Assembly (NCBI GenBank): GCA_024277525.1
Contig: JAJRUZ010000035.1
Location: forward strand, 1,930-65,929
DNA length: 64,000 nt
Direction of reading: 5' to 3'
From: a candidate division WOR-3 bacterium
Lineage (GTDB): Bacteria; Hydrothermota; Hydrothermia; Hydrothermales; JAJRUZ01
Both the position numbers and the translations under genes were made by a program. Each line of letters opens with the position of its first letter. Positions within the stretch are counted from its first letter, which is position 1. The notes under the pieces are model-generated. The model was not told where the DNA came from. It saw only the letters and a program-made list of their open reading frames with translations, and did not search any database. Positions 4,031 through 51,141 of the stretch are shown here, one piece after another.

Positions 4031-4045
4031 TCGGATTTGAACCGA
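4031..4045 (-). promoter_or_regulatory. T-arm-like leader hairpin, copy h (TCGG-TTCAAAT-CCGA)
   Basis: Coding-strand TCGGTTCAAATCCGA, 22 nt upstream of the ATG at 4008. Confidence 0.6.
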
Positions 4046-4058
4046 GATGATATATTTT

Positions 4059-4073
4059 TCAAAAATTATGCCA
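4059..4073 (-). promoter_or_regulatory. candidate sigma54 (-24/-12) promoter TGGCAT-N5-TTGA
   Basis: Minus strand reads TGGCATAATTTTTGA. GG and TTG have the canonical spacing, but the -12 element reads GA instead of GC. Sits immediately downstream of a sigma54-activator gene. Confidence 0.35.
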
Positions 4074-4123
4074 GATTTTTTTAAAAGAAGAATTTAATTG
4101 ATTTACAGAAAGATTTTAAATTT

Positions 4124-7100
4124 TTAAATTTTTTTTAAGAGACCATACTTTTTAAGTTTTTGAATCAAAGTCTGACGGGAAATATTTAATATTTTGGCGG
4201 TCTCGGTTTTATTCCAATTTGTCTTCTCTAAGACTTTTAAAATATATTTTTTCTCCATTTCTTCAAGCGGTAAAATTTTTTCTTTATCTTTCATACTTTT
4301 TCTTATCTCTTCCGGAAAATGCTCGGGACCTATTGCCTCACCGGGTTTTGAATTTAAAATTGCAAACTCAAGAGCAAATTTTAGTTCCCTTACATTTCCG
4401 GGCCAAGAATAATTATACAAATACTTCCATGTCTCATGTTTTATTCTTATCTTTTCTTTTATATTATGTTTCTTTATTATTTCTTTAAGAAAATGTGTAA
4501 TTAAAACAGGAATGTCATCTATTCTTTCCCTTAAAGGAGGGATATAAAAATAATAGCCTTTCAATCTGTAATAGAGGTCCTTTCTCAAAATTCCCTGTTT
4601 CACTTTCTCTTCAACATCGGGTAAAGCAGTTGCTATGACCATAACATCCACACTTTTTTCCCTTGTTGTGCCTAAGGGTCTTATCTTTCCTGTATCCAAG
4701 AACCTCAACAATTTCTCCTGAACAGGCGGAGGAATTGATTCCACATTTTCAAGAACAAGTGTTCCGTTGTCCGCTTGCTCAATCAAACCTGTTTTATCCT
4801 CATATGCACCTGTAAAAGCACCCTTTTTATACCCGAAAAGTTCACTCTCTGCGAGTGTTAAAGGAAATTCATTAAAAGAAAAAAATACAATCGGGTTGTT
4901 TTTCCTCAAACTTAATCTGTGAATCGTATCTGCAAGTAAAGTCTTCCCTGTGCCTGTCTCTCCCACTATTAAAATCGGTAAAGGCTTTTCAAGTTTTCTG
5001 ATTTTATCAATAAAGACAGTAATCCTGTTAATAAATTCCCTTGTCCCCACTATTTCTCCTATCCTTTCTATTTCCTTTAATTTTTGCTCCAACATCCTCT
5101 TCTCTTCTTCTATTTTTTCTTTTTCTTCTTTTATTTTATCAAAAAGAAGATTCCTCTGATAAGAAATTGTAAAAACATCAGCCATTATTCTTACAAGTTC
5201 CATATCCTCCTCTGTAAATTCCCTCTTTTTTCGTGAATCAAGATAAATTGCTCCGAAAGGTTTTCCTTCATAGAAAAGAGGAAGGCATAATATTGACCTT
5301 ATTCTGAACCTCCTTATGCTTTCCCTGTTTTTTAATTCAGGATGTGAAAATGTATCAGGTACAAAGAAATGGGTTCCCTTTTTTGAAGCAGAATATAATG
5401 AACTTTTGGATATATCAATTAACTCAATATTTATTTTCTTCTTGTACATTCTGTAAGTGCCTTTTACTTCGTATACATCTTTTTCGTCATCCTTTTTAAT
5501 TACTATCATTCCCCTTTCGCTGTTTGTTGCATTAGCAAGTATTTCAATTGTTCTATTAAAGAACTCCGTTTCCTCATGGTATTTTGAAGCATAAATAAGG
5601 TAATTTCTGAATATTTCCCATTTTGCATGACTCCTGATAATTGAAATGGAAGTTATTTTTAAAATTTCTTTCCTTATCTCTTCCAACTCGTGCTTCAAAA
5701 ACTTATCCTCTTCCCCCTCTATCATTTCATTTAAAAATTTCTCAAATTTTGTAATAATGCCGGAACTTAAAATTTTCTGCTTATTCTCATAAGCCAACAA
5801 AACATTAAAGAAGATAATTAAAAATTTTTTAAAATCTTTATTTGTTTTTAGTTCATCAGCTTTTTTAAGAAATCCGTCAAACCGGGTAAAGGCATTAACT
5901 ATGTGGTCGGATATAAGGTCATGAAAGGAATCAACAAAAATTTCAAATATGTCTGCAATGGGTAGAGAAAGTTTTATTCTTCTTATCTTCATCTTATACT
6001 TTTTATTCGGGGTCCGGTGCTCAACAAGGTCAATAAAGTAAAGTAAAAGTAAAAATAATTTCTGTTTCTGAATGTTATCCGTTTTTTCATAATGATCTAA
6101 AAGTGTTTGGGAATATTTTTTTATTTTGTTCAAATCTTTTATAATTGAATTAAAGAAAAGTAAGTCTTCAATTGTATTTATCTTTAAATAAAAAGGAAGG
6201 AACTTCTCTTTAACCTTTTCAAAATTTAACAACAATTCTTTAAATTTTTTATTATCTCCTTTTATTCTTACATAACGAATATACTCACTCATTATTTCTA
6301 TCAATTTCTCATTTAATTTTAATTTTTCACAAAGTTCAATTGCTCTCTTGTAATTATCTTCCGGGCTTTCACCGCTTAATTCTTTAAATTTTCCCTCAAG
6401 AAATTCTATATAAGGCTCAATGAAAGGAACGGGGTAACTTTTATGAATTGCCTTTATTTTCATCAATGCATTCTTAGCAGTTTCAATTGAATCTTTGTCA
6501 AGAAAATAATAAATTCTGATAAATTCGGTTAAAATATAGGGATAAGGGAAAATTTTTATATGCTTCAGAAACTCACTAATTCTTCGGGTTAAACGAATTG
6601 CCCTTTTCTTTTTGCCGATATTATATAAGAATTCAATATAATAAGCTAAATATTTATAGCTTTTTTCTGTTTCTCCCTCTTTTTTTGCCTTAAACAGACT
6701 TTTTCTGTAATCTATCTCCGCTTGTGCAAAATCTCCTTCAAACTCCTCTAATTTTGCTTTTACAAAATAAAACTGAGAGAGTTCCTCCGATGTGGCTTTC
6801 TTTTCGTACTTTTTAGCAAAAGTATGAAGAGTATTTTTTAATTTTTTTATATCATAAGTATTAAGCAGATAAAAACATTTTGAAAGCAAACCCCTTTTTG
6901 TATTCAATTTATCTATCACATTTACCGCTTTTTCGTATTCGCCTTTAAAATGATAATATAGTGATTTCCCTATTAAATATTTTTCTTTATTTTTCTTTTT
7001 CAATACATTTAATACCTCACTCACATTTTTCTCGTCCTTTTTAAAAGTATAATATATAAGCAGTTTCTCAAGTACATCAGAAGGTATTTTTTTGAGATCC

Positions 7101-8854
7101 GGTTTTTTCAAATTTTCAAAAAATGTGAATATATAAACCTGATTTTTTGTGTATATTTCTTCTATTTCTTCATTAAAATCTTTTGCAACCTCATACTTTC
7201 CGAGATTATATGCAGAAAGGTAAAATAAAAGTCTTCCTTCAAGGGATAATTTTTTTATATCTTTGAGATTCTTTAAAATCTTCTCAAATGTTCCTTTTCT
7301 CGATTCAAATTCAATCTCGGATAAAGGCACATACCCACCCCCTATTCTTTCAATAACTCTTCTATCGAGCAAACTTTTTATATTCCTTTCCCCGAATATT
7401 CTTTTTGTTTCAAATGTATTCAACTGTCCGAAGATGTTTAAAACATAAAGCACCTCTTTTTCTTCTTTTTTTAATCTTACTTCTGCTTTTGTAATTTTAT
7501 CAATCTCCCCTTTCTCCGAAAATTCTTTTATAAGTGTAAATACTTTTTTAAGGTCTCCTTTATTTTTTAAGACTGTTCTTTCAAATAATTTTTCTTTCCC
7601 GTATATACCGGTATTGTTCTCAATATATTGAACGATTTTTTCGGTATCAGGATCCGGGAATTCAATCACTTTACCCTTTAAATCAAAATCATAAGGAATT
7701 TCAATAACAACAGGAAATTTCCTTATTTTTTCCACCTCATATAAGGCGTTCAGGAAATTAATGAAAGTCTTTTTATGCAACGGAGGATCGGTCAAAATGA
7801 TGAAATAGGTTAAATCTGATTTTAAGTTTAATAAATGGGTAATCAAAAATGGATACAGATTTTCCTCTTTCAGGTTCAGATACGGTAATTTACCTTTATC
7901 TATTAAAAGACCGTTAAAATTTTCTTTAAGCTGAGTATAAATATTTCTTAAAATAAAACTTTTTCCTGTTCCTTTTTGCCCTTTGACAAGAAATATCCCT
8001 CCTTTCCTTTTGGAAATGTTTTCTTTTATTTTATTTTTTAAGTCTTTAAAAAATTGTTGATTTAAAATTTCTAAATCATTAAAATAAGTTCTTTTTTCGG
8101 AGAAAATTTTTTCTAATATCTCGGTCGCAGAAAGTCTTTTTTGAGGATCAGGATTAAGAATAAGGTCAAACAAGTTAATCCAGAAATCATCCTTGACCCT
8201 GTTTTTCCACTTTTTTTTATTTATAAAATCTTTCAAGCTCTCATAAGTCCTGAAACTTATTTCTTCTCCCGTAACCAATTCGTAAAGTACAATTCCTGCT
8301 GAAAACATATCCGATTTGTGCGTCGGAGATTCACCCGAAAGCACCTCAGGGGCACAATAGGGAATGGAACCTCTCGGAATTTTTTTCTCCGTAAAGGAGG
8401 CAAATCCGAAATCACTCAATACAGGATAAAATGACTTTTTGTGGGTGAAGAGGATGTTCTCCGGTTTTATGTCCGCATGAATAACACCGTTCTTTTCCAA
8501 ATAGGAAAGAATATCAAATAAATCTATCGCAAATTTTTTAAAGTCAAATTTCTCCTTCTCCTTTATTCTTTCCTTTAAATTTCCTCCGTTTAAATATTCA
8601 AGAACAAGAAAAGACTTCCATTGTGGATAAAAAAAGAAATCAAAGCTTTTTAAAATACCGGAATGATTCAATAAGGATAGGAAATAGAATTCATTATAAA
8701 GTTCTTTATGATTCTTATATTTTGTCTCTTTAAGAACAATATAATTCCCCGAAGGTTCTTTTAAAAGTGAAAGGGTATAATCTTTTGTTTTTCTTAGATC
8801 TTTTTCTTTTGTTAATATTGCATGTATCTCATATGTCCAGGCTCTCTTTTTCAT
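4124..8854 (-). CDS. multidomain regulator: Ser/Thr protein kinase, P-loop NTPase, helical (TPR-like) repeats, GAF, sigma54-interaction AAA+ domain and Fis-type HTH
   Basis: 1576 aa. Kinase motifs HADIKPENIL, DFG, APE. P-loop GQKGTGKS at about aa 292. GAF-like region at about aa 1075-1235. Enhancer-binding-protein (EBP) motifs GETGTGKT (nt 4940-4963), GAFTGA (nt 4805-4822) and WPGNVREL. C-terminal NISRQTLIQKLKKYGL. Confidence 0.85.
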   Translation of the reverse strand: MKKRAWTYEIHAILTKEKDLRKTKDYTLSLLKEPSGNYIVLKETKYKNHKELYNEFYFLSLLNHSGILKSFDFFFYPQWKSFLVLEYLNGGNLKERIKEKEKFDFKKFAIDLFDILSYLEKNGVIHADIKPENILFTHKKSFYPVLSDFGFASFTEKKIPRGSIPYCAPEVLSGESPTHKSDMFSAGIVLYELVTGEEISFRTYESLKDFINKKKWKNRVKDDFWINLFDLILNPDPQKRLSATEILEKIFSEKRTYFNDLEILNQQFFKDLKNKIKENISKRKGGIFLVKGQKGTGKSFILRNIYTQLKENFNGLLIDKGKLPYLNLKEENLYPFLITHLLNLKSDLTYFIILTDPPLHKKTFINFLNALYEVEKIRKFPVVIEIPYDFDLKGKVIEFPDPDTEKIVQYIENNTGIYGKEKLFERTVLKNKGDLKKVFTLIKEFSEKGEIDKITKAEVRLKKEEKEVLYVLNIFGQLNTFETKRIFGERNIKSLLDRRVIERIGGGYVPLSEIEFESRKGTFEKILKNLKDIKKLSLEGRLLFYLSAYNLGKYEVAKDFNEEIEEIYTKNQVYIFTFFENLKKPDLKKIPSDVLEKLLIYYTFKKDEKNVSEVLNVLKKKNKEKYLIGKSLYYHFKGEYEKAVNVIDKLNTKRGLLSKCFYLLNTYDIKKLKNTLHTFAKKYEKKATSEELSQFYFVKAKLEEFEGDFAQAEIDYRKSLFKAKKEGETEKSYKYLAYYIEFLYNIGKKKRAIRLTRRISEFLKHIKIFPYPYILTEFIRIYYFLDKDSIETAKNALMKIKAIHKSYPVPFIEPYIEFLEGKFKELSGESPEDNYKRAIELCEKLKLNEKLIEIMSEYIRYVRIKGDNKKFKELLLNFEKVKEKFLPFYLKINTIEDLLFFNSIIKDLNKIKKYSQTLLDHYEKTDNIQKQKLFLLLLYFIDLVEHRTPNKKYKMKIRRIKLSLPIADIFEIFVDSFHDLISDHIVNAFTRFDGFLKKADELKTNKDFKKFLIIFFNVLLAYENKQKILSSGIITKFEKFLNEMIEGEEDKFLKHELEEIRKEILKITSISIIRSHAKWEIFRNYLIYASKYHEETEFFNRTIEILANATNSERGMIVIKKDDEKDVYEVKGTYRMYKKKINIELIDISKSSLYSASKKGTHFFVPDTFSHPELKNRESIRRFRIRSILCLPLFYEGKPFGAIYLDSRKKREFTEEDMELVRIMADVFTISYQRNLLFDKIKEEKEKIEEEKRMLEQKLKEIERIGEIVGTREFINRITVFIDKIRKLEKPLPILIVGETGTGKTLLADTIHRLSLRKNNPIVFFSFNEFPLTLAESELFGYKKGAFTGAYEDKTGLIEQADNGTLVLENVESIPPPVQEKLLRFLDTGKIRPLGTTREKSVDVMVIATALPDVEEKVKQGILRKDLYYRLKGYYFYIPPLRERIDDIPVLITHFLKEIIKKHNIKEKIRIKHETWKYLYNYSWPGNVRELKFALEFAILNSKPGEAIGPEHFPEEIRKSMKDKEKILPLEEMEKKYILKVLEKTNWNKTETAKILNISRQTLIQKLKKYGLLKKI

Positions 8855-9693
8855 AGTATAACTTCTTCCCTTCTATCGGAATGACACTGAATATTAACTG
8901 CTACCGGCAATGAAGTAATATGACAGGGATATGTTTCAATATTAACATCAAGGGCTGTTATTCTTCCTCCGAGTCCCATAGGACCTATTCCGAGTTTGTT
9001 TATTTCCTCAAGCAGTTCTTCTTCAAATTGAGCATAAAAGGGGTCGGGATGTCTGTGTCCTATGGGTCTTGCGGTTGCTTTTTTTGCCAAGAATGCTGAA
9101 TATTCAAATGTCCCTCCGATTCCCACTCCCACTACAATAGGGGGACAGGGATTCGCCCCTGCTTTCTTAACTGTTTCAATTACAAATTTTTTAACCCCTT
9201 CCTTACCTTCACCCGGCAAAAGCATCTTGAAAGCACTCATATTTTCACTACCTCCTCCCTTCGGTTCAAATACTATCTTTAATTTGTCTCCGGGAACAAT
9301 ATCAAAATGAATGACAGGAGGGGTATTATCTCCTGTATTTTTCCTTCTTAACGGGTCTTCAACAATTGACTTTCTCAAATAGCCTTCTGTATAACCCTTT
9401 CTTATTCCCTCAATAAGTGCATCCTTGAGTGAACCACCTTCAATTTTCACATCTTCCCCTATTTCAACAAAAAGGACGGCAAAACCCGTATCCTGACATA
9501 AAGGCCTGTTATCCTCTTTTGCAACCTCAATATTTTTCAAAATCTGAGACAAAATTTCCTTCCCGAATGGGGATTCCTCTTTTTCATAAGCATTTTTCAA
9601 CGCATTAACCACATCGTCCTTTAATTCATGCGTTGCTTTTATGCACATATTTTTAACTTCTTCCACAATTTTTTCATATTTTATAATTTTCAT
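8851..9693 (-). CDS. Fe-S type hydro-lyase, fumarate/tartrate dehydratase alpha subunit (class I fumarase N-terminal domain)
   Basis: 280 aa with PLCQDTG motif and the overall FumA/TtdA alpha pattern. GGAGGAGG RBS. Stop overlaps the kinase start (ATGA). Confidence 0.8.
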   Translation of the reverse strand: MKIIKYEKIVEEVKNMCIKATHELKDDVVNALKNAYEKEESPFGKEILSQILKNIEVAKEDNRPLCQDTGFAVLFVEIGEDVKIEGGSLKDALIEGIRKGYTEGYLRKSIVEDPLRRKNTGDNTPPVIHFDIVPGDKLKIVFEPKGGGSENMSAFKMLLPGEGKEGVKKFVIETVKKAGANPCPPIVVGVGIGGTFEYSAFLAKKATARPIGHRHPDPFYAQFEEELLEEINKLGIGPMGLGGRITALDVNIETYPCHITSLPVAVNIQCHSDRREEVIL

Positions 9694-10552
9694 TTTTACC
9701 TCCTCCGAATTTTTTTAATTTTAACATATTATAATTTCCGAATGCATCTTCCATTTTCAAAATAAACTCACCGTTTATTTTCCTTATTTTCATTCTTATT
9801 ATATTTTTACATAAAAAATTGTTTTTTTCAATTTCTATTATACATCCATCAAGTCCCTCTCCCTGTTTAGCAGGCTCAAATTTATAAGGGATACCGGACA
9901 AAAATCTTTTTATGATAGGCTCCCTCTCCCCGCCTATCACGGAGTCAAAAGAACCCGTCATCCCGATATCGGTTATATACCCTGTTCCCTTCGGTAAAAT
10001 TTCATTATCCGATGTTTGAACATGAGTATGGGTACCTATTACAGCTGTGACTTTTCCGTCCGCAAAATATCCGAAAGCAATTTTTTCGGATGTTGCTTCT
10101 GCATGAAAATCAACAATTATAGGTTTTTTAATTTTTTGGATTATTTCTTCCAGCTTTCTGAAAGGACAATCAATCGGTTGCATAAAGACCCTTCCCATTA
10201 GATTTATTACAGTCAAATCTATTCCGTAAATATTGAAGACAGCATATCCTTTACCCGGGGCATTCGGTGGGTAATTTAAAGGTCTCAATAAATTATTTTT
10301 TGTGTCTATCCATTTTAAGATTTCCTTCTTGTCCCAGATATGATTTCCGCTTGTTAAACAATTCACCCCCGCATTCACGATTTCATTGTAAATTTTTTCG
10401 GTCAATCCGTTTCCGTGTGCAGCATTTTCCACATTTGCTATTACAAAACTTACATAAAAATTTTTTTTTATTTCGGGCAAAATCTCTTTTAATACTTTTC
10501 TTCCCGTCTTCCCGACAATATCACCTACGAATAATACTTTCAGGAGGTCCAT
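9674..10552 (-). CDS. ymdB: YmdB-family metallophosphoesterase (2',3'-cyclic-nucleotide phosphodiesterase-like)
   Basis: Motifs LFVGDIVGKTGR, NVENAAHGNGLT, SGNHIWDKKE, DFHAEATSEK, GTHTHVQTSD. Confidence 0.85.
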   Translation of the reverse strand: MDLLKVLFVGDIVGKTGRKVLKEILPEIKKNFYVSFVIANVENAAHGNGLTEKIYNEIVNAGVNCLTSGNHIWDKKEILKWIDTKNNLLRPLNYPPNAPGKGYAVFNIYGIDLTVINLMGRVFMQPIDCPFRKLEEIIQKIKKPIIVDFHAEATSEKIAFGYFADGKVTAVIGTHTHVQTSDNEILPKGTGYITDIGMTGSFDSVIGGEREPIIKRFLSGIPYKFEPAKQGEGLDGCIIEIEKNNFLCKNIIRMKIRKINGEFILKMEDAFGNYNMLKLKKFGGGKNENYKI

Positions 10553-12577: not shown

Positions 12578-12650
12578 TGGGCCGTCGGGGATTCGAACCC
12601 CGGACCCCTGGATTAAAAATCCAGTGCTCTTCCTACTGAGCTAACGGCCC
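12578..12650 (-). tRNA. tRNA-Lys (anticodon TTT)
   Basis: Minus strand GGGCCGTTAGCTCAGTAGGAAGAGCACTGGATTTTTAATCCAGGGGTCCGGGGTTCGAATCCCCGACGGCCCA folds as a cloverleaf: 7-bp acceptor, anticodon loop TTTTTAA, T-loop TTCGAAT. CCA is not encoded. Confidence 0.9.
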
Positions 12651-25678: not shown

Positions 25679-26341
25679 CTATAAATAAAAGAAAAACATC
25701 AATCTGAAAGTGGTGAGTTCTATTTTAAGAAAATGAGTATAACTTGTTTCTCTTATTATCTCGGTGGTAGTTCCTACGGTTTGGGTTGTTTTCTCTGAAT
25801 ATCTTTCAACAAGCGGAAACTTTAAACCTATGTCTACTGCGAATCCTTTCGTAAAGAAATACTCCAAACCTGCTCCAAAGGGGAGTCCGAAGCCCATAAG
25901 TGTAGAAGTAGCACTGAAATCAGCTCCTTGAACCATCGGTTTTATATCATATTTATGAAGTCTGAACACAAAACCGAAGAAAGAGTAAATATTTCCTTTT
26001 TTTGCTATCATAATTTTTGTTCCACCCTTCATTCCCAATCCGAAATTGAAATTAGTCACACTCAAAGAATCCGGAACAGTGTAGTCTTCTTTATTAAATC
26101 CGAAAATAATATCGGGCTCAACAAAGAATTTTCCGAGTTCCATTTTAACAGCAAAATGCGGATAATTTATTATTGAAGGGATGAATCCGCCGAATTGCCA
26201 TTGTGCAGTTCCGGTTGTTACATCAAAAAACGGGGTTGCGGTGTTCATATCAGTTCCTATTCCGAATCCGATGGTCATGGCTTTAAGAGAGAAAAATACG
26301 GATACAAATAAGACAAGAATCTTAAAGGTAAAGTTTCTCAT
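25679..26341 (-). CDS. outer-membrane beta-barrel protein (OmpA-barrel / porin-family-like)
   Basis: 220 aa with a signal peptide and alternating hydrophobic strands carrying aromatic girdle residues. Confidence 0.5.
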   Translation of the reverse strand: MRNFTFKILVLFVSVFFSLKAMTIGFGIGTDMNTATPFFDVTTGTAQWQFGGFIPSIINYPHFAVKMELGKFFVEPDIIFGFNKEDYTVPDSLSVTNFNFGLGMKGGTKIMIAKKGNIYSFFGFVFRLHKYDIKPMVQGADFSATSTLMGFGLPFGAGLEYFFTKGFAVDIGLKFPLVERYSEKTTQTVGTTTEIIRETSYTHFLKIELTTFRLMFFFYL

Positions 26342-26361
26342 TTTTATTTAAATTAATTTTA

Positions 26362-26378
26362 AAGGGATTGGAACCCTT
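26362..26378 (-). promoter_or_regulatory. T-arm-like leader hairpin, copy d (AAGGG-TTCCAAT-CCCTT)
   Basis: Coding strand AAGGGTTCCAATCCCTT, 20 nt upstream of the ATG at 26341. TATAAA box 5 nt upstream. Confidence 0.6.
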
Positions 26379-26392
26379 AATTTATAAAATTA

Positions 26393-27403
26393 TTATCCCT
26401 CTTTTTCACCCATAAATTCAAGTAAATCAACCACCCTCACAGAGTATCCCCATTCATTGTCATACCATCCGCCCACTTTTACCATGTTTCCGAGCACCTC
26501 TGTGAAAGTTGCATCAAATATACAGGAATGAGGATTTCCGATAAAATCAGAAGACACAAGAGGTTCCTCGCAATATTCAAGGTATCTGGGCAATTTTTCT
26601 GCCTCTTTTTTAAAAGCGGAATTTACTTCTTCTTTTTTAACCTCTTTTGATAAAATAGCAGTAAAATCACATAAAGAAACATCAGGAGTAGGAACCCTTA
26701 TTGCTATTGCTTTAAGTTTGCCTTTTAATTCAGGATAAATGAGTTCAATTGCCTTTGCTGCTCCGGTGGATGTGGGAATTATGTTCTGAGCAGCCGCCCT
26801 TGCCCTCCTTAAATCTTTGTGTATTTGATCAAGAATTCTCTGATCATTTGTGTATGAATGAATGGTGGTCATTTCTCCTTTCTCAATTCCGAAATTTTCA
26901 TGCAGAACCTTAACAAGAAATGCAAAACAGTTGGTCGTGCATGAAGCATTTGAAATAACAAAGTGTTTTTGAGGGTCGTATTTATCTTCATTTACACCCA
27001 AAACAATCGTTATATCCGGAGGAGTTCCTTTTCCGGGGGCAGTAATAATTACCCTTTTTGCACCTGCAGAAATATGCTGAGCAGCCTTTTCCCTGTCCCT
27101 GAAAACACCCGTTGCCTCCACCACATAGTCAATTTCAAGTTCTTTCCACGGAAGCTTATTAGGATCTTTTTCGGCAAAGACTTTTATCTTAATTCCGTTG
27201 ATTAAAAAACCGTCCCCTTCAACTTTTATTTCACCTTCTGCTTTTCCGAAAACCGTATCATATTTATAAAGATGAGCCAAAGCAGCAGGATCCGAAAGGT
27301 CATTAATTGCTACGAATTCAAGATTTTCCCTTTTTAATCCTTCTTTTAAAACCTGTCTTCCGATTCTTCCGAATCCGTTAATTGCAATCCTTATTTTTTT
27401 CAT
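26393..27403 (-). CDS. gap: type I glyceraldehyde-3-phosphate dehydrogenase
   Basis: INGFGRIGR, SNASCTTNC, WYDNEWGYS. Confidence 0.95.
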   Translation of the reverse strand: MKKIRIAINGFGRIGRQVLKEGLKRENLEFVAINDLSDPAALAHLYKYDTVFGKAEGEIKVEGDGFLINGIKIKVFAEKDPNKLPWKELEIDYVVEATGVFRDREKAAQHISAGAKRVIITAPGKGTPPDITIVLGVNEDKYDPQKHFVISNASCTTNCFAFLVKVLHENFGIEKGEMTTIHSYTNDQRILDQIHKDLRRARAAAQNIIPTSTGAAKAIELIYPELKGKLKAIAIRVPTPDVSLCDFTAILSKEVKKEEVNSAFKKEAEKLPRYLEYCEEPLVSSDFIGNPHSCIFDATFTEVLGNMVKVGGWYDNEWGYSVRVVDLLEFMGEKEG

Positions 27404-27425: not shown

Positions 27426-27438
27426 GGGAATAGAACCC
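27426..27438 (-). promoter_or_regulatory. T-arm-like leader hairpin, copy c (GGG-TTCTATT-CCC)
   Basis: Coding strand GGGTTCTATTCCC, 22 nt upstream of the gap ATG at 27403. TATAAA box 4 nt upstream. Confidence 0.5.
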
Positions 27439-28333: not shown

Positions 28334-28347
28334 AAGGATTTGAACCC
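28334..28347 (-). promoter_or_regulatory. T-arm-like leader hairpin, copy b (GGG-TTCAAAT-CCTT)
   Basis: Coding strand GGGTTCAAATCCTT, 21 nt upstream of the ATG at 28312. TATAAT box 6 nt upstream. Confidence 0.55.
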
Positions 28348-28434
28348 GAACTATTATAATTAGACATTCAAATTTATAAAATGGTTCATTATTTTGAGGG
28401 AAAGACTATTTTTATGATATAATAGTTTCCATTT

Positions 28435-33520: not shown

Positions 33521-34144
33521 ATGAATACTTTAATTTTGTTTACCTATTTTATAGGATTCAAGTTGTCAAATAACCTAATTCCATCTTCGTATCTAATAGA
33601 ATTTGCTCTGGGAAAAAAAGTTTTGTGGGGCGTGAACTGGAACTATTCATATGAAATGAACACAGGCTCACTGAGAGTTGACAAAAATACATCCTGCCAG
33701 AAAATAGAAGGCATGGCTCAACATTTTAAACTCTCCCTGCCTGTGAAACTTTTAATAAAAAAGATTAAGTTTCTAAAAAAATTAGAGACTAATCTTCTAA
33801 TTAAATTTTCACCTTACTATTCTTTACAACTACATAAACAAGAAACAAAAACAACACGACCATCCTCAGACACATTCAAAAGAATCATGACACTCAAATA
33901 CTGGTCAACAGGGATTCATGTGGGATTTTCATGGGACTTCCCTGTGAATTATAAGGGATTCCCATTTAAAATCAGATTAAATACAAATTTTGCAAATCTC
34001 TACTATCGCGAAGATATCTTAGAATCGAAGCAAATCTTTGAATCAGATGAGAAATCTTCTCGAATCATAATGAAACATGCTAATTTTTATTTTGAAAATC
34101 CTTTAAAAAATGAATTGAGTATTTACTTAATTTTTGAATTATAA
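33521..34144 (+). CDS. hypothetical protein (possibly beta-strand-rich)
   Basis: 207-aa ORF with no RBS or motif recognised. Retained only because it fills otherwise empty sequence. Confidence 0.3.
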   Translation: MNTLILFTYFIGFKLSNNLIPSSYLIEFALGKKVLWGVNWNYSYEMNTGSLRVDKNTSCQKIEGMAQHFKLSLPVKLLIKKIKFLKKLETNLLIKFSPYYSLQLHKQETKTTRPSSDTFKRIMTLKYWSTGIHVGFSWDFPVNYKGFPFKIRLNTNFANLYYREDILESKQIFESDEKSSRIIMKHANFYFENPLKNELSIYLIFEL

Positions 34145-36571: not shown

Positions 36572-36961
36572 TTATTCAACTTCTAGAATTCCGGTTTTAA
36601 AATCAATTGTTATTTTAAAATGTTTTAAAAATGATAAACCCAGAAGACCCACAACATAGCTTCTCGGGGGTAAATCATGACATACTACAGGGACATTTTT
36701 TACACTTTTATCTAAAAATTTTATTTCTTTTACTTTTATCAAAGGTGCAGTTTCTATTCCGCTTGCGGTTATCAAGGTAATCTTTTCTCTGGAGAGTGCA
36801 GGGTCATAACCCAGTGCTTCTGCTATTTGCCATGGAATGATTGTATAAGTAGCCCCTGTATCCAGAGCTACTTTTATTCTTCTTTTATTTTGTCCCTTAC
36901 CGTACAGGGTAATCTCTACTCCGATAACAGGAGAACCCGGGTCAAATTTAATTCTTGCCAC
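36572..36961 (-). CDS. retropepsin-like (clan AA) aspartic protease
   Basis: 129 aa with active-site context VALDTGATYTIIP and C-terminal ..GLLGLSFLKHFKITIDFKTGILEV. GTG start. Confidence 0.7.
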   Translation of the reverse strand: MARIKFDPGSPVIGVEITLYGKGQNKRRIKVALDTGATYTIIPWQIAEALGYDPALSREKITLITASGIETAPLIKVKEIKFLDKSVKNVPVVCHDLPPRSYVVGLLGLSFLKHFKITIDFKTGILEVE

Positions 36962-40517: not shown

Positions 40518-40532
40518 AAGGATTTGAACCTG
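40518..40532 (-). promoter_or_regulatory. T-arm-like leader hairpin, copy a (AGG-TTCAAAT-CCT)
   Basis: Coding strand CAGGTTCAAATCCTT, 22 nt upstream of the ATG at 40495. Confidence 0.55.
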
Positions 40533-44691: not shown

Positions 44692-44713
44692 AATACACCT
44701 CTTAGCGGTTTTC

Positions 44714-44726
44714 AGGGATTGAACCT
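44714..44726 (-). promoter_or_regulatory. T-arm-like leader hairpin, copy e (AGG-TTCAATC-CCT)
   Basis: Coding strand AGGTTCAATCCCT, 22 nt upstream of the ATG at 44691. Confidence 0.45.
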
Positions 44727-44806
44727 TATTTTTTATTTTAAGATAAATTTAAATTGATTTTCAAATTCATAAAAGATTATTATTAACTTTCAAAAAGGAG
44801 GAAAAA

Positions 44807-45856
44807 ATGGAAAAGAAAATCAATGAAATTTTAAATGCTTTGAAAAATGTATATGATCCTGAACTCGGAAAAGATGTAGTATCTTTGGGAATGATAAGTG
44901 ATATAAAAATTTGTGATAACACGGTATCTTTCAGATTTACATTAACCACACCTGCCTGTCCGTTAAGGGAACATCTTAAAAGAAAGGCAGAAGAAGCAGT
45001 GAAATCTATACCGTGGGTAGAAAATGTTAATGTTATAATGGATGCCCGGGTAAGAAGTAGAATGACTTCTCCTGAAAAAAAAATCAAAGGGGTTAAGAAT
45101 ATTATAATCGTCGTCAGCGGAAAAGGAGGGGTAGGGAAGTCAACGGTTGCTCTTAATCTCGCAATTGCTTTAAAAAAACTGGACTCAAAAGCAGGTCTTC
45201 TTGACGGAGATGTGTACGGTCCCACTTTAAGTATAATGGGAAAAACAAAAGCTCCTCCACTTGTTAAAGAAGAGGAAAAAATTGTTCCTCCTCTTTATTA
45301 TGGAATACCGATTTTATCAATAGGTTTTATGACAAATCCGAATCAAGCAGTTGTATGGAGAGGACCCATGGTGCACACTGCTTACAGACAAATGCTCTTT
45401 GATGTTGAATGGGGAGAACTCGATTATCTAATAATAGACCTTCCTCCGGGAACAGGGGACCCTTTAATTTCTATAACACAACTTATTGAATTGTCAGGAG
45501 CCGTTTTGATTACAACTCCTCAAGAAGTATCAATTGCTGATGTAAGAAGAGCCGGCAACTTTTTGAAAAAAATGAATGTTCCTATTCTCTCAATCGTTGA
45601 AAATATGAGTGATTTCATCTGTCCGCATTGTAAAAAGAATACAAAGTTATTTGAAGGAAAAGGTGGAGAAATTCTCGCAAAAGAATTTGATGTGGATGAA
45701 GTGATAAGAATTCCTTTTGATCCCCTGCTTACCGGTCTATCGGAAGAAGGAATACCTCTGCTTGAAGAAGTTAAAGAAAGCCCCGCTTCCTCATCTTTCA
45801 TCAGATTAGCACAAAAAGTTGCATCCAAAATAAGTGTGCTACTGAATCCTGACTAA
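44807..45856 (+). CDS. Mrp/NBP35 (ApbC) family Fe-S cluster carrier ATPase with an N-terminal DUF59-like domain
   Basis: VYDPELGKDVVSLGM (MIP18/DUF59-like), SGKGGVGKST P-loop, CPHC motif. Confidence 0.85.
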   Translation: MEKKINEILNALKNVYDPELGKDVVSLGMISDIKICDNTVSFRFTLTTPACPLREHLKRKAEEAVKSIPWVENVNVIMDARVRSRMTSPEKKIKGVKNIIIVVSGKGGVGKSTVALNLAIALKKLDSKAGLLDGDVYGPTLSIMGKTKAPPLVKEEEKIVPPLYYGIPILSIGFMTNPNQAVVWRGPMVHTAYRQMLFDVEWGELDYLIIDLPPGTGDPLISITQLIELSGAVLITTPQEVSIADVRRAGNFLKKMNVPILSIVENMSDFICPHCKKNTKLFEGKGGEILAKEFDVDEVIRIPFDPLLTGLSEEGIPLLEEVKESPASSSFIRLAQKVASKISVLLNPD

Positions 45857-46905
45857 GAATTTTTAATGCACAATAATGTCTTTATGATTTCGTCACCCGT
45901 AAATTTCTCAGGCATTAGAAAAACATCAAATCCTTTTTTCGAAATATGTTCCTTCGTCACCCTTCCGATAGAAATTATTTTTTTATTTTTTAATAAATTC
46001 TTTCCCTGCTTACCTATTATTTTCAAAAAGGTATCAAAAAGTTTGGGACTCGTGAAAATAAATTCGTCCGCCTGATGGAGAGAAGAATAAAATATCCCGA
46101 GTCTTTTTCTTTGCTCCGGAACCATATCATATATCTTAATCTCCTTAACATTAAAACCCAATCTTTTTAGTGTTTCAAAAAGGTATTCCCTTCCGTATGT
46201 CCTTAAAATCAAAGTTTTCTTACTCCCTTTAATATTTTTCTTAAAAAATTCAACGATTCCTTCCTGTGTATACTCCTCAGGCAAGATTGAATCAAAACCG
46301 AGTTTTAAAACTTCTTTTCTTGTTTCCGGTCCTATTGATATTATTTTTTTATTTCTTAAAAATTCATATAACTCTTTTTTATTTTTTATTAAACTTTCAA
46401 AAGCCATGACACCCCTTTTGCTTGTAAAAATAATAAAATCCCAATTTTTCTTTAAATTTTTTTCAAGATCCGGGGGTTTTGTAATTTTAAACTTTAAAAC
46501 AGGAAAAGGGACCGCCTTTGCACCGAATTTTTCAAGTTTATTTGCAAAATAAAGGGCGTCGGGCATCGGACGGACAACAACAAAAAATCTCCCTTTTAAA
46601 TTTCCGTAAGGCAATTGATATTTGATGTTGACCTCTGTAAATGAATTTTTATTTTCTTTGAGTTTTTTTAAAATAAAATCTCGGTTTTCCTTTTTCCCGA
46701 GCAAGAAAAGTGTTTTGCTTTTTATCTCAATATCTCTCTGTTCAAACCTTTCCCATTTCGCCTCCGAGACCCACAAAACACCCAGAGGAGATTTTTCATC
46801 AAAGTATACTTTCTTAAAATTCGAAAAAAAATTCCATATTTCCGGAAAAAGGGTAAAACTATCGGTTTTTGCATAACATATATAAATTTCAGATGAGTTT
46901 TTCAT
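45853..46905 (-). CDS. hemD: uroporphyrinogen-III synthase with a ~100-aa N-terminal extension
   Basis: The C-terminal ~250 aa show the HemD pattern (two Rossmann-like halves, ..IIFTSKRGV.., ..FTSP..). Follows hemA-hemC. Start set at the ATG at 46905. Confidence 0.65.
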   Translation of the reverse strand: MKNSSEIYICYAKTDSFTLFPEIWNFFSNFKKVYFDEKSPLGVLWVSEAKWERFEQRDIEIKSKTLFLLGKKENRDFILKKLKENKNSFTEVNIKYQLPYGNLKGRFFVVVRPMPDALYFANKLEKFGAKAVPFPVLKFKITKPPDLEKNLKKNWDFIIFTSKRGVMAFESLIKNKKELYEFLRNKKIISIGPETRKEVLKLGFDSILPEEYTQEGIVEFFKKNIKGSKKTLILRTYGREYLFETLKRLGFNVKEIKIYDMVPEQRKRLGIFYSSLHQADEFIFTSPKLFDTFLKIIGKQGKNLLKNKKIISIGRVTKEHISKKGFDVFLMPEKFTGDEIIKTLLCIKNS

Positions 46906-47743
46906 ACGCTTTTTTAACCACCTCTTCGGGAGATTCACCAACTATATGAACCTTTCGGACCTTTTTGTCTTTTATATACATAGCAAAAAGACTTATTTTA
47001 TTGTCCTTTAATTCAGCATAACATCCGAAAGGAATGGCACAACCGCCACCGAGCTTTTTCAAAAGCATCCTTTCGGTATTTACTTCAATTTCGGTCTTTT
47101 TGTGCGATAAATTTTTGAGTATTTCATAAAAAGAAGAACTTTTTCTTATTTCAACACATATTGCTCCCTGACCCGGGGAAGGGGGAAATTCGTAAATATC
47201 AAGAATTATGCAGGGTTCTTTAATTCCCAACCTTTTGATAGCAGGACCCGCAAGTAAAATGGCGTCAACAATTCCCTGCTTCCATTTCCTTATCCTTGTA
47301 TCAACATTTCCTCTCAAAGGGACAAATTCAAAGTCATTTCTTTTTAAAGATAAAAACGCAACCCTTCTCACACTGCTTGTTCCTATTTTGGCTTTCTCGG
47401 GAATTTCATCCATGGAGTTGCATTTCGTTATAATAACATCAAAAGGTTTTTCCCTCTCAAGATACATTGCAATTTCAAGTTCCTCCGGAATCTCTGTGGG
47501 AACATCCTTAGCACTGTGCACAGCAATGTCTATTTTATCTTCAAGAAGAGCCTGTTCCAAGGCTTTAACAAATATTCCCTTTTCTTTTATTTTAAAAAGT
47601 GGAGTATCCTTGTCCCTGTCTCCTTTTGTTCTTATGGGAACAAACTCGGTTTTAAAACCATTATTTTCTAAAATTTTTATCACTTTTTCTGCTTGTATCC
47701 TGCTTAATTTTGAACCCCTTGCTCCTACCCTTATTTTATCCAA
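46889..47743 (-). CDS. hemC: hydroxymethylbilane synthase (porphobilinogen deaminase)
   Basis: IRVGARGSKLSRIQA, RGNVDTR, and a cofactor Cys context (GGGCAIP). Confidence 0.9.
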   Translation of the reverse strand: MDKIRVGARGSKLSRIQAEKVIKILENNGFKTEFVPIRTKGDRDKDTPLFKIKEKGIFVKALEQALLEDKIDIAVHSAKDVPTEIPEELEIAMYLEREKPFDVIITKCNSMDEIPEKAKIGTSSVRRVAFLSLKRNDFEFVPLRGNVDTRIRKWKQGIVDAILLAGPAIKRLGIKEPCIILDIYEFPPSPGQGAICVEIRKSSSFYEILKNLSHKKTEIEVNTERMLLKKLGGGCAIPFGCYAELKDNKISLFAMYIKDKKVRKVHIVGESPEEVVKKAYEKLI

Positions 47744-48879
47744 TTTTTAATAATTTCCTCTATGGGCTTTCCGCTTCTTAAAGATTTAAGGGTCGGATAA
47801 AGATAAAATTTCTTCATTTTTTCAAGGATTTTCCTTAATTTTCCGTTATCTTCGTATCCTTTTAATATTTTGTCAGTCTTTAAATCAACAAATTCAAAAA
47901 TTTTAAGAATTTCTTCCTCTTTTTTAATCCATCTTTCAAATTTCTCACTCTCTCTTTTTGCTCTGAATTTCACATAAGACAGGAGATTTTCTTTCTCCTT
48001 AACTCTTTCCTCTATTATTTTCTTGAACTCATCAATCTGATGGAACTTAATTTTATTTAAATTTCTTACCTCAGGATCAACATTTCTGGGAAATCCGAGG
48101 TCTATAATAATCTTAGGATTGTCTTTACTTTTTAAATGTTCCGGTTTTAAAAGATATTCTTCTGTATTGGTAGCAAATATAACAGCAGTAAAATGAGGAA
48201 CATATAAAGGGAGTGTTTCGGATGTATAAACGATTGTATCAAGTTTGGCGTGCTCTTTTAGAAATTTTGCCCTTTCTTCGCTTTTTGTTGCTATTGCAAA
48301 CGGAATTCTTTCCTGATAAAGATACTTTGAAATGCTTATTCCCATTTCACCCGTTCCCACTATTAAACATCTAATATTTTTATATTCACGGGAAAAATCT
48401 TTTAAATAGAGTGATACAATTCTCGGAATTGACATGGATCCGAATTGCAACTTTGTTTCCTCTCTGATTTTTTTTGCGGTAAAGATTGCTCTTTCAAAAG
48501 CCCTCACAAGATATTTTGATACCCACCCTTTTTCTTTTGCTTTTTCATAAGCATCCTTTACCTGTCCCAGAACCTCGGGTTCACCTATTGCAGGAGAATC
48601 AGCGCCCGTCCCCACAATAACAATATGCTCAAAAATACGGGAAGGTGAATTAACAATTTCAGGATATTTTAAAAGAACAGGAGGAATAATATTCTTTATC
48701 ACTTCTTTTTTATTTTTATCAACCCTCAGATAAAGTTCTACTCTGTAACATGTAACAAGGAGGACTTTCTCTTTGATTCCGGGCAAGTCTTTTTCGAGTG
48801 TTTCTTCCCAGAATTTATAAATTCTTTCCCTCACCTCTCCGGGTGAGTTGCGATGGGTAAAAAGAATTCCGTATAACAT
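47731..48879 (-). CDS. hemA: glutamyl-tRNA reductase
   Basis: TCYRVELY active-site Cys motif and GTGEMG NADPH-binding site. Start set at the ATG at 48879 (MLYGILFTH..). Confidence 0.85.
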   Translation of the reverse strand: MLYGILFTHRNSPGEVRERIYKFWEETLEKDLPGIKEKVLLVTCYRVELYLRVDKNKKEVIKNIIPPVLLKYPEIVNSPSRIFEHIVIVGTGADSPAIGEPEVLGQVKDAYEKAKEKGWVSKYLVRAFERAIFTAKKIREETKLQFGSMSIPRIVSLYLKDFSREYKNIRCLIVGTGEMGISISKYLYQERIPFAIATKSEERAKFLKEHAKLDTIVYTSETLPLYVPHFTAVIFATNTEEYLLKPEHLKSKDNPKIIIDLGFPRNVDPEVRNLNKIKFHQIDEFKKIIEERVKEKENLLSYVKFRAKRESEKFERWIKKEEEILKIFEFVDLKTDKILKGYEDNGKLRKILEKMKKFYLYPTLKSLRSGKPIEEIIKNWIK

Positions 48880-48965
48880 TTTAAATATTATATTCAAAAA
48901 TTCAAAATAAGTAAAGAAAAGTTAAAAAAATAAAATATTTTAGAATCAATCTAAAATTATAAAAA

Positions 48966-50192
48966 TTATTTCTCAAAAAACTTAAAAGGGTTATCCGTTA
49001 ATATTTCCTCTCCTGTTTCCATGTTTTTTAATTTAACTTTTTCTCTTTTTATTTCTTCTTCCCCTATTATCAAAACCCATTTCGCTCCTTTGTTGTTTGC
49101 TTTCCTCATCTGGGATTTTAAAGACCTATAATCCCATTCCATATCTGCATAGAGATTATTTTCCCGGATTTTTCTTACCCATTTTATTGCTTCATCCTTT
49201 TCTTTCTCTGTGACATAAACTACATAAATGAGGGCTTTATCTTTCTTTTTAATATCTTCCATTACAAGCATTAACCTCTCGACACCGAAGGCAAATCCTA
49301 TTCCCGGACTATCAGGTCCACCCATATCTTTTAATAAAAAATCATATCTTCCGCCACCGCCCAGAGCATCCTGCGCACCCAGTCTGTCAGAAATTATCTC
49401 AAATGCCGTCCTTGTATAATAATCAAGTCCTCTGACAATTAAAGGATTTTCAACATATTTAAAATTTTCTTTTTCAAGTAAATTGATCAAAATTTCATGA
49501 TGCCTCCTGCAATCATCACACAAAAAATCCATTAAACTCTTAATTTCTCTAATTTTTGCTTTATCTATTTTGCAATCAATTATCCGGAAAGGGTTCCTTT
49601 CATATCTTCTTTTACAATTTTCACAAAAATTATTTATCTTATCTTTCAAAATATTTCTTAAATATTTTGAATATTTTTCTCTATCCGAAATGCACCCTAC
49701 AGAATTAATTTCAAATCTATAATCTTTTATTCCCAGATTTTTTAATAAATCTTCGGCAAGTAAAAGAACTTCAAGGTCAATATAAGGTTCTTTAAATCCC
49801 ACCGCCTCTGCTCCTAATTGAAAGAATTCCCTGTATCTTCCCTTTTGCGGTCTTTCATATCTGAACATATTCATGAAATATGCAAATTTACAGGGGATTT
49901 CAATATTATTCTCAAGAATTGCTCTTAAAACCGGAGGTGTTCCTTCGGGTCTTAAAGCAAGTTTTCTTCCTGATAAATCTTCAAATACATACATTTCCTT
50001 TTGGACAATATCCGTTGTTTCTCCTGTTGACTTTTCAAAAAGTTCCTTAGATTCAAAAGCAGGAGTCAATATAAAATCATATCCGTATTTTGAGAATATT
50101 TCCCTTGATTTTTCAAAAATAAAAAATAATTTTTCAAATTCTTCGCCGTAAATATCTCTTGTTCCGCGGATTTTTTTGAATTTAATACTCAT
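48966..50192 (-). CDS. hisS: histidine--tRNA ligase
   Basis: RGTRDI, LRPEGT, FRYERPQKGRYREFFQ, GGGRYD. Confidence 0.95.
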   Translation of the reverse strand: MSIKFKKIRGTRDIYGEEFEKLFFIFEKSREIFSKYGYDFILTPAFESKELFEKSTGETTDIVQKEMYVFEDLSGRKLALRPEGTPPVLRAILENNIEIPCKFAYFMNMFRYERPQKGRYREFFQLGAEAVGFKEPYIDLEVLLLAEDLLKNLGIKDYRFEINSVGCISDREKYSKYLRNILKDKINNFCENCKRRYERNPFRIIDCKIDKAKIREIKSLMDFLCDDCRRHHEILINLLEKENFKYVENPLIVRGLDYYTRTAFEIISDRLGAQDALGGGGRYDFLLKDMGGPDSPGIGFAFGVERLMLVMEDIKKKDKALIYVVYVTEKEKDEAIKWVRKIRENNLYADMEWDYRSLKSQMRKANNKGAKWVLIIGEEEIKREKVKLKNMETGEEILTDNPFKFFEK

Positions 50193-50255
50193 AAGTCTTA
50201 ATTATAAACTATTTTTTGAAATCTACTCCTTTTTTTAATAAAATTTTATAATAAA

Positions 50256-50270
50256 AAGGTTCAAACCCTT
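50256..50270 (+). promoter_or_regulatory. T-arm-like leader hairpin, copy f (AAGG-TTCAAAC-CCTT)
   Basis: AAGGTTCAAACCCTT, 24 nt upstream of the GTG at 50295. TATAAT box 5 nt upstream. Confidence 0.6.
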
Positions 50271-50294
50271 AAAATATTAAAAAGGAGAAAATTT

Positions 50295-51128
50295 GTGAAA
50301 AAACTATTGTTTGTGATTTTTATTCTGCTATTCTCTTTTTCCTGTAAACAGAAGGAAAAAAAGCCGATAACAGGTAATTTGATTGCTAAAATCGGGAATG
50401 TCTATATCACAAGTGAAGACCTTGAGAAGGGTTTGCCTCAATTTGCTTATCAATTAATGGGAGAGGAACAAAGGAGACAATTTTTTGATTATGTGATAGA
50501 CCTGGTTTTATTTTCCCTTGCAGCGGAAAAAGAGGGCATAGATAAGGAGCCTTTGATGAAGGAGCGTCTTTTATGGGCAAGAAGGATGGTTCTATCCGAT
50601 GAATACTTTAAGAGAAAAACTCAGAATGTTTTTGTATCACAGGCAGAGGTGGATTCTTTTTATAAAAAATATGAAAATGATTTTTTAAAAGAGATTGAAT
50701 TTGTGTATTTCTTTGCTGAAAAGGCAGCAGATGCGGAAGAGATAAAAAGACTTTTAAGTTCTCAAGTTTTCAGTAAAATATTGGTTGATAAAATATTATC
50801 AAAATATAATGTGAACGGAGACATTACGAGTGTCAACGCAGGGTATTTACATCTTGAAAATGCCCTCCCCTTTCCGAAAGAAATTGCAGATGCACTTTTA
50901 AATCTTCCAAAGGGTAAAGTTTCGGATGTAATATCACTTCAAAATCCTCCATCCTTTGCGGTTGTTAAAATTCTGAGCACAAGTCCGACAAAAATTCCCA
51001 AACAGGATATCTTGAATAACATAAGGCAATATCTTCAGCTCACCAAAATATTAAAAATAAAAGATTCTTTAAGGGAAGAATTAAAAAAACAATTCCCTGT
51101 TGAGATTTATTCGAAGGCAATTAAGTAA
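50295..51128 (+). CDS. SurA/PrsA-like periplasmic chaperone lipoprotein (degenerate parvulin-like domain)
   Basis: Lipobox LFSFSC, SurA_N-like helical N-terminal part, weak PPIase-like C-terminal part. GTG start after AAGGAG. Confidence 0.5.
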   Translation: MKKLLFVIFILLFSFSCKQKEKKPITGNLIAKIGNVYITSEDLEKGLPQFAYQLMGEEQRRQFFDYVIDLVLFSLAAEKEGIDKEPLMKERLLWARRMVLSDEYFKRKTQNVFVSQAEVDSFYKKYENDFLKEIEFVYFFAEKAADAEEIKRLLSSQVFSKILVDKILSKYNVNGDITSVNAGYLHLENALPFPKEIADALLNLPKGKVSDVISLQNPPSFAVVKILSTSPTKIPKQDILNNIRQYLQLTKILKIKDSLREELKKQFPVEIYSKAIK

Positions 51129-51141
51129 GGTTCAAATCCTT
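51127..51141 (+). promoter_or_regulatory. T-arm-like leader hairpin, copy g (AAGG-TTCAAAT-CCTT)
   Basis: AAGGTTCAAATCCTT, 20 nt upstream of the hbd ATG at 51162. Overlaps the stop codon of the preceding gene. Confidence 0.6.

Follow-up and report, generated by a model that had tools for sequence, protein, structure and literature searches.

Short elements in mRNA leaders are of several described kinds. The ompA, ermC and aprE leaders carry stable 5'-terminal stem-loops, which act as stabilisers and have no common loop sequence. In chloroplasts, PPR10-type proteins form caps; the bound protein blocks 5'-to-3' decay and frees the ribosome-binding site, and its sites are single-stranded and gene-specific. 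T7 gene 10 'epsilon' and A/U-rich S1 sites are linear translational enhancers, which pair with 16S rRNA or bind S1. The ops element read by RfaH is a precedent for a hairpin in the non-template strand. A sequence-plus-hairpin determinant, the GUUCNANNC stem-loop, is used by TruB/Pus4 and TrmA on their mRNA targets. With 3-bp GUUCNANNC stem-loops in vitro, TruB shows weak binding, but its modification rate is still about 0.3 times that on tRNA (PMC13492117). For bacterial mRNAs, there are reports of GU-psi-CG sites (PMC13236023). The element described here is a 13-nt motif resembling the T-arm of tRNA, which recurs upstream of start codons in 64,000 nt of DNA from a candidate division WOR-3 bacterium (contig JAJRUZ010000035.1 of assembly GCA_024277525.1, positions 1,930 to 65,929). 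This whole stretch is called the window; its G+C content is 33%. With middling confidence, the motif is read as a cis-element that is transcribed as part of the translation-initiation region and mimics a T-arm; a T-loop-recognising factor would dock on it and raise expression.

The core of the motif is the 11-nt pattern GGTTCNANNCC, and distances to start codons are counted from its 3' end. The window contains 11 matches to the core, against 1.27 +/- 1.14 in dinucleotide-preserving shuffles; none of 100 shuffles reaches 11. The matches are the eight sites of an original prediction made from the sequence, the T-arm of a true tRNA-Lys (12578-12650), and two sites in coding sequence (3890 on the plus strand and 8361 on the minus strand). 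The eight predicted sites, and no others, score 20.9 to 32.4 bits in the window with a covariance model of 39 copies; the next match scores 16.6 bits.

All eight predicted coordinates and strands were reproduced, as were the distances from hairpin edge to start codon (22, 20, 22, 21, 22, 22, 24 and 20 nt). The loop variants and the coding-strand orientation are as stated in that prediction, and the downstream genes are all as it guessed. Copy 1 (4032-4044, minus strand; C-GG-TTCAAAT-CC-G; 23.5 bits) lies 24 nt from the ATG of a gene (3850-4008) for a secreted peptide of 53 aa. Copy 2 (26364-26376, minus strand; G-GG-TTCCAAT-CC-C; 32.4 bits) lies 23 nt before the ATG of an outer membrane protein (OMP) beta-barrel gene, in a 51-nt gap on the 3' side of gap. 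Copy 3 (27426-27438, minus strand; G-GG-TTCTATT-CC-C) is 23 nt from the ATG of gap itself, which encodes GAPDH; it is kept at five orthologous loci, and its third pair shows a GC/AU exchange among the first four. Copy 4 (28335-28347, minus strand; G-GG-TTCAAAT-CC-T, with a G.U third pair) is 23 nt from the ATG of a gene for a putative lipoprotein of 277 aa, and is kept at three orthologous loci. Copy 5 (40519-40531, minus strand; A-GG-TTCAAAT-CC-T; 29.9 bits) is found 24 nt before the ATG of sppA (peptidase S49). Copy 6 (44714-44726, minus strand; A-GG-TTCAATC-CC-T; 20.9 bits) is 23 nt from the ATG of an M6 peptidase gene with a type IX secretion system (T9SS) tail. Copy 7 (50257-50269, plus strand; A-GG-TTCAAAC-CC-T; 32.4 bits) is 26 nt from the GTG of a SurA-like peptidyl-prolyl isomerase (PPIase) gene. 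Copy 8 (51128-51140, plus strand; A-GG-TTCAAAT-CC-T; 31.3 bits) is 22 nt from the ATG of hbd, for 3-hydroxybutyryl-CoA dehydrogenase; its first base is the last base of the upstream stop codon, and the intercistronic gap is 33 nt.

The resemblance to the T-arm consensus was borne out, as the conservation fits the T-loop position by position. In an alignment of 39 copies, G7, G8, T9, T10, C11, A13, C16 and C17 are invariant; these correspond to G52, G53, U54, U55, C56, A58, C61 and C62 of tRNA. It should be noted that the search pattern itself fixes the invariant positions. A search of about 120 kb of clade DNA that allowed one mismatch gave a single convincing variant, GGTCCAAATCC, before the OMP orthologue in locus L081. 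The remaining loop positions are free: position 57 is A in 34 copies, T in three, C in one and G in one; position 59 is A in 25, T in 11 and C in three; position 60 is T in 30, C in eight and A in one. These positions also differ between orthologues, and the gap loops read UUCUAUU, UUCUAAU, UUCAAUC and UUCAAAU. Position 57 is a purine in 35 of the 39 copies and a pyrimidine in four; gap copies in several genomes have U57, and the purine rule of the T-loop seems relaxed here. The motif thus has the 7-nt loop of the T-arm, closed by G53-C61 and G52-C62, with U54, U55, C56 and A58 conserved and positions 57, 59 and 60 variable. Its asymmetric conservation is unlike that expected of a palindromic protein-binding site in DNA.

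The motif core is identical to true T-arms in the same genomes, but the copies are not tRNAs. They have no acceptor, D or anticodon arm, only three supported stem pairs in place of five, and a pyrimidine at position 57 in the four copies mentioned; they also differ from the T-arm in sitting in mRNA leaders at a fixed distance from the start codon. ARAGORN and Rfam find tRNA-Lys as the sole tRNA in the window. In Rfam 15 it alone passes the gathering threshold there, and a permissive search gave sub-threshold matches only. The region of copy 2 (26354-26419, minus strand) matches the Rfam tRNA model at 21.3 bits, against a threshold of 29 bits. Whole tRNA-like structures were rejected, as this match consists of the T-arm and A/U-rich pseudo-stems, with the D and anticodon arms deleted.

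The two inner G-C pairs of the stem are invariant across copies. Of 45 copies, 35 have the pair that flanks GG/CC, whereas shuffles give 23.3 and none of 20,000 reaches 35; the pair is GC in 14 copies, AU in 12, UA in three, CG in two and GU in four. Within sets of orthologues this third pair switches between G-C and A-U, at times by way of G.U or A.C. It reads GC, GC, AU, AU, GC and AC in the gap orthologues, GU, GC, AU and AC in the lipoprotein orthologues, and GU, GC and AU in the orthologues of a gene of 245 aa. The covariation first proposed for the stem therefore holds for this single pair. It does not extend to the outer pairs, which are at the level of shuffles and slid controls; exchanges of the AAGG/CCTT type are a chance product of A/T-rich flanks. 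The stem had been put at 3 to 5 bp, and only the lower value stands: pairs 4 to 8 are no better than in shuffles, so the helix is 3 bp long and falls short of a 5-bp T-stem. According to folding models, such a hairpin cannot be a stable structure by itself. There is no larger conserved structure around it, and RNAalifold on gap gives the 3-bp hairpin only. Taken whole, the initiation regions have as little structure as shuffles, or less. The lipoprotein leader shows an invariant UGAACC/GGUUCA pairing in RNAalifold, the UGAACC of which is read as the -35 box of an extracytoplasmic function (ECF) promoter; the TGAACC of this ECF-like promoter is the exact complement of GGTTCA in the motif. The 3' arm of the motif (UCCUU) is able to pair with the Shine-Dalgarno (SD) sequence in some copies. 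As a general rule this pairing was rejected, since SD-less copies exist.

The position of the motif relative to start codons is nearly fixed. The clade set comprises 245 kb of DNA and 53 distinct non-tRNA matches to the core. An open reading frame (ORF) of at least 40 codons starts 18 to 30 nt downstream of 45 of the 53, with a mode of 23 nt; in 35 of these 45 the distance is 22 to 27 nt, and all 45 lie on the coding strand. Only about 11% of core matches in control DNA have such an ORF start. The eight clade matches out of context are not far from the five or so expected by chance. In the clade loci, the motif precedes about 20% of genes. Two good copies are exceptions in spacing: these lie 36 and 39 nt before the next start, at L164 299-325 (alaS) and L102 5471-5497. 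A tRNA T-arm lies some 40 nt upstream of the L164 copy.

In genes that have an SD, its GG begins 13.4 +/- 2.2 nt past the core and the ATG lies 25.0 +/- 2.1 nt past the core. The distance from core to ATG (standard deviation 2.1) varies less than the sum of its two parts (2.15 and 1.84), which suggests that it is the core-to-start distance that is constrained. The linker after the motif is 48% A and 30% T. GGAG or GAGG is found 4 to 18 nt before the start in only about 35% of genes (window, L081, L083, L084 and L164). At the junction of an HD gene and rho in a sister lineage (L166 9900-10010), the HD stop codon overlaps an SD, TAGGAGGtttatATG. The same junction in the motif-bearing clade (for example L083 3150-3240) consists of stop codon, motif and A/U linker, and the SD is absent. 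A further difference between L166 and this clade is in the Rho N-terminus. Leaderless mRNAs or very short leaders are suggested for several motif-less genes, such as 3382-3723 and 33521-34144, by a TATAAT-like box 6 to 7 nt upstream of the ATG.

T9SS tails in the window point to the FCB group. An exact match to the window lipoprotein was not found, and relatives were sought by homology among 5.8 billion proteins. There are only three, 57 to 63% identical, one of which is named candidate division WOR-3. Their contigs (L081, L083 and L084) retain the local gene order and have the motif before the orthologous lipoprotein gene and gap; it also occurs there before rho, sigma-factor-like, EF-G-like and other genes. 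Because it is retained before orthologous gap, lipoprotein and rho genes although the flanks diverge, the motif appears to be under purifying selection upstream of these three. A pattern scan of metagenome contigs gave 21 loci with about 13 true elements, and several of the loci have further independent copies nearby.

The distance between lineages was gauged by Rho identity to L084. L164 and L170, with Rho proteins 86 to 89% identical, have the motif; L170 belongs to Ca. Hydrothermales (NCBI order Caldifarciminales). The sister WOR-3 lineages L165 and L166 (Rho identity 73 to 74%, G+C 28 to 29%) have no motif in 42 kb, and the more distant WOR-3 lineages L167 to L169 have none except one imperfect match inside a gene. 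Together the 105 kb of these lineages contain one imperfect model match. Control loci from unrelated phyla were reached via GAPDH (54 to 62% identity); about 660 kb of them gave no model match at E<1, and a regular-expression scan of all 1.3 Mb gave no in-context copy. Viral contigs picked for the exact 17-mer do not have the start-codon context for more than one copy in any contig. They were rejected as carriers of the motif, being chance matches or phage tRNA clusters. Since close Rho relatives have the motif and the sister and distant lineages do not, it is best read as a recent invention of one narrow WOR-3 clade. Within this clade, L098 (1-11644) is an integrase-bearing mobile element with five motif copies in 11.6 kb, two of which precede internal genes of a long operon, one for a lysine-rich and one for an acidic protein. 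Weak matches to virion and endolysin proteins mean that L098 is possibly a prophage. An integrase is found at this copy-bearing locus only; elsewhere the copies precede ordinary chromosomal genes.

Promoter-like sites are found upstream of individual copies and are of different types. The window's only match to a sigma-54-type promoter, TGGCATAATTTTTGA (4059-4073, minus strand), is upstream of copy 1. By the standard -12 spacing rule, transcription is predicted to start near 4047, 2 nt before the stem (TCGG, 4045) first proposed for this copy; a gene encoding a sigma-54 activator (4124-8854) adjoins the match. An ECF-type promoter-like sequence, GAACC-N17-GTCTAA (28360-28387, minus strand), is upstream of copy 4 and conserved in the orthologues; among the lipoprotein copies it ends 8 to 13 nt upstream of the motif. 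In L105, a similar GAACC...GTCTAA precedes the motif copy of another small gene. A reading of TGAACC on the other strand as an antisense ECF promoter was rejected, since the GTCTAA box is sense-oriented and all copies follow the downstream gene. Sigma-70-like sites end 6 to 16 nt upstream of the gap, OMP, M6-peptidase and SurA-like copies; that of copy 7 is TTGAAA-17-TAAAAT and ends 13 nt upstream. The TATAAT/TATAAA box that had been placed 4 to 6 nt upstream is present in four copies, but is no rule: -10-like hexamers are spread over 1 to 17 nt without a sharp peak, and a -10 box at fixed offset was rejected as a general feature. Around copy 8 there is neither a promoter-like nor a terminator-like site. 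None of the copies coincides with a terminator-like site, and the sequence 3' of the stem is A-rich; the motif does not have the form of an intrinsic terminator, a G+C-rich stem of at least 5 bp with a T-run after it.

Other copies are intercistronic. They fill co-directional gaps of 33 to 50 nt and begin 0 to 5 nt after the upstream stop codon; examples are copy 8, the HD-rho junctions of L083 and L084 (33 to 43 nt) and L098. The two L098 copies in the long operon lie 1 to 4 nt after a stop codon, and the first gene of that operon has no motif. The suggestion that the hairpin sits near the mRNA 5' end would thus hold downstream of promoter-like sites, but not for these several intercistronic copies. 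In the window, ten or more genes that seem to head transcription units have no motif. Because promoter-like sites lie upstream, copies occur between cistrons and unit heads occur without the motif, it is probably not the promoter itself and is most likely transcribed; transcription would follow from the first two of these. The spacing seems to be tied to the start codon and not to a promoter, since the -10-like hexamers are spread and the upstream promoter types differ. The motif as the -35 box of leaderless mRNAs was rejected, as many copies have AGGAGG, with the spacing of an SD, at -12 to -7.

The main rival is a promoter element acting in DNA: a sigma factor peculiar to the lineage would recognise it as its -10 region, or an activator would bind there. 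Transcription would then start in the conserved TTAAAA a little further downstream, and the fixed distance to the start codon would follow from uniform short leaders of about 17 to 20 nt. This is possible but unlikely. Several properties would suit it. The 20% of genes with the motif is near the share expected to head transcription units; the motif is strand-specific and followed by the A-rich TTAAAA; its stem is weak, its third pair is absent in some copies, and a mobile element uses it. However, there is no second conserved block upstream at any spacing. The motif is a single block of 11 to 13 nt and corresponds to no known promoter consensus (sigma-70, ECF, sigma-54 or the Bacteroidota-type -7 box). 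Starts predicted from the sigma-70-, ECF- and sigma-54-like sites fall before it, and apparent unit heads in the window lack it. The asymmetric conservation fits a T-loop at each position, and a protein that reads double-stranded DNA would give no reason for the flanking pair to covary.

The preferred reading is that of a T-arm mimic acting in the transcript. We infer the action in RNA, the binding of a factor and the direction of the effect. The 13-nt mini-hairpin, with a 3-bp stem and a 7-nt loop UUCNANN, would span about -24 to -36 from the start codon, some 12 nt 5' of the SD position, and would imitate the tRNA T-arm. It is proposed to dock a trans-acting factor, because the hairpin is too weak alone and yet the bases that define a T-loop are invariant. 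Candidates are a TruB/TrmA-type enzyme, another RNA-binding protein or T-arm binder, or the platform of the 30S subunit. The motif loop may also be partly complementary to the 790 loop of 16S rRNA. Recognition by TruB or TrmA is plausible by analogy: the copies have both features of such substrates, GUUCNANNC and a stem-loop of at least 2 to 3 bp, here a stem of 3 bp. Bound at a fixed position, the factor would define where the ribosome-binding site begins on its 5' side. It may hold open the A/U-rich linker, protect the 5' ends of primary or processed transcripts, or do both; in each case the downstream cistron would be expressed more strongly, whichever promoter drives transcription. A positive expression signal, by enhanced translation, 5'-end protection or both, is favoured because the mobile element uses the motif and because housekeeping genes carry it (gap, rho, the L31 gene of L170 and EF-G-like genes).

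Several points weigh against the T-arm-mimic reading. All transcription starts are predictions from consensus matches in A/T-rich DNA, and the conserved TTAAAA right after the motif also fits the initiation region of a -10-like promoter element. Only three pairs of the stem are supported, and the third is absent in ten of 45 copies, including three of the four in L170. Folding energies are -0.4 to -6.3 kcal/mol, hardly better than in shuffles (z mostly 0 to -2). Orthologous copies are not independent, so the p-values from shuffles overstate covariation. SD sequences are equally frequent with the motif (9/24, after two tRNA T-arm matches were removed from the 26 counted) and without it (34/97), and there is no sign that it replaces or needs an SD. 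A role as SD replacement was rejected on this ground, despite the loss of the SD at the rho junction. The trans factor that reads the T-loop is hypothetical.

A second rival keeps the motif in RNA and makes it a signal for processing or stability only. Either an endonuclease would cleave immediately before the mini-hairpin, or the latter and a bound protein would block decay that depends on the 5' end; neighbouring cistrons would thereby have different stabilities, as with protein-capped 5' ends in chloroplasts, with no direct role in initiation. Copies do lie between functionally unrelated neighbours (lipoprotein and gap, gap and OMP, HD and rho, gap and EF-G-like), and predicted primary starts are 0 to 10 nt before the hairpin. 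A stability element, however, has no need of tight spacing to the start codon (mode 23, range 18 to 30), nor of a distance to ATG that varies less than the sum of its two parts, and the hairpin is much weaker than known 5' stabilisers. We regard this rival as distinctly unlikely.

A third, very improbable rival is a hairpin of non-template DNA in the transcription bubble, read in early elongation by a NusG-family protein or a sigma factor. A strand-specific 13-nt leader element with a short covarying stem and a conserved loop would look the same in RNA and in non-template DNA. Elements of the ops type, however, occur in few long operons, whereas the motif is before about 20% of genes, second cistrons in 33-nt gaps included; a fixed distance to the start codon is no known feature of ops, and the match to the T-loop consensus would be a coincidence. 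From its gene frequency and spacing, the motif appears to differ from this class. Lastly, chance, a compositional artefact or remnants of tRNA genes (such as attachment-site duplications of mobile elements) might be suspected from the identity of the core with real T-arms and the weak tRNA-model match at copy 2 (21.3 bits), but this is refuted by the enrichment, strand bias, spacing and orthologous conservation, by the one tRNA found in the window by ARAGORN and Rfam, by the missing D and anticodon arms of that match, and by an integrase at L098 only.

The T-arm mimic can also be set beside the described systems. Rfam has no family for it, and the papers found by full-text search for the sequence and for T-arm-like leaders give only tRNA contexts and general work on pseudouridine; the WOR-3 literature searched does not mention the motif. 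This agrees with the statement that no leader motif of this kind is described. It may be classed as new among cis-acting leader RNA motifs, a member of none of the families compared. Known mRNA targets of TruB/Pus4 and TrmA share the determinant, but their sites are scattered and mostly coding, and are not a positioned, conserved leader element of a whole genome. As with the stabilisers of ompA, ermC and aprE, the hairpin is within the first few bases of the predicted transcript and upstream of the ribosome-binding site. Those have a stable stem at the extreme 5' end; the motif has a weak stem and a conserved sequence, and some of its copies are intercistronic. With PPR10-type caps it shares a short sequence-specific site before the start codon in intercistronic RNA. 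Those caps involve other organisms and proteins and no T-loop mimic, and the analogy is one of possible working, not of membership. Upstream translational enhancers are also 5' of the SD position, with an A/U-rich unstructured linker after them, and occur with and without an SD; the motif differs in having a covarying pair and the T-loop consensus.

Some neighbouring genes should also be described. The sigma-54 activator domain next to copy 1 is part of a 1576-aa gene product, which fuses a Ser/Thr protein kinase, a STAND/AAA NTPase region, GAF, the activator domain and HTH. On the minus strand of 3850-8854, the order is this gene, the TGGCATAATTTTTGA match and the secreted-peptide gene; the arrangement resembles a sigma-54 switch under kinase control, with a small exported peptide as its output. 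The lipoprotein gene is divergent from bamD (YfiO) and has an ECF/RpoE-like promoter pattern upstream. Both the window (25679-26341, minus strand) and L081 (12336-12974) have an OMP beta-barrel gene, preceded by a motif copy of its own, in the space between gap and pgk. In L084, L164 and L170, pgk directly follows gap, with no OMP gene between them. A gene for a retropepsin-like aspartyl protease of 129 aa (gag-asp_proteas, Asp_protease_2) is present at 36572-36961 (minus strand), beside an ABC transporter pair.

Bacterial initiation signals beyond the SD are poorly understood, especially in the FCB group, where many genes have no SD. A short, easily mutated element at a fixed place before about one fifth of genes, and recent in one clade, is a clean natural experiment, and comparison of gene content with the sister lineage that lacks the motif could point to the factor which reads it. 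A cultured WOR-3 strain exists, sy37 (PMC12285271), and transcript mapping in the phylum is becoming feasible. A practical gain would be better prediction of gene starts and annotation of operons in these genomes. In its widest and rather doubtful form, the proposal is of clade-wide tRNA mimicry on a genome scale. The T-arm look-alike would recruit a component of translation, either the ribosome or an abundant tRNA-binding enzyme serving as an RNA chaperone, and would be a signal independent of promoter and SD for several hundred genes, which mobile elements have borrowed. Should a T-arm enzyme or the ribosome indeed read the motif, tRNA mimicry at a set position in bacterial mRNA leaders would be seen on a genome-wide scale for the first time.

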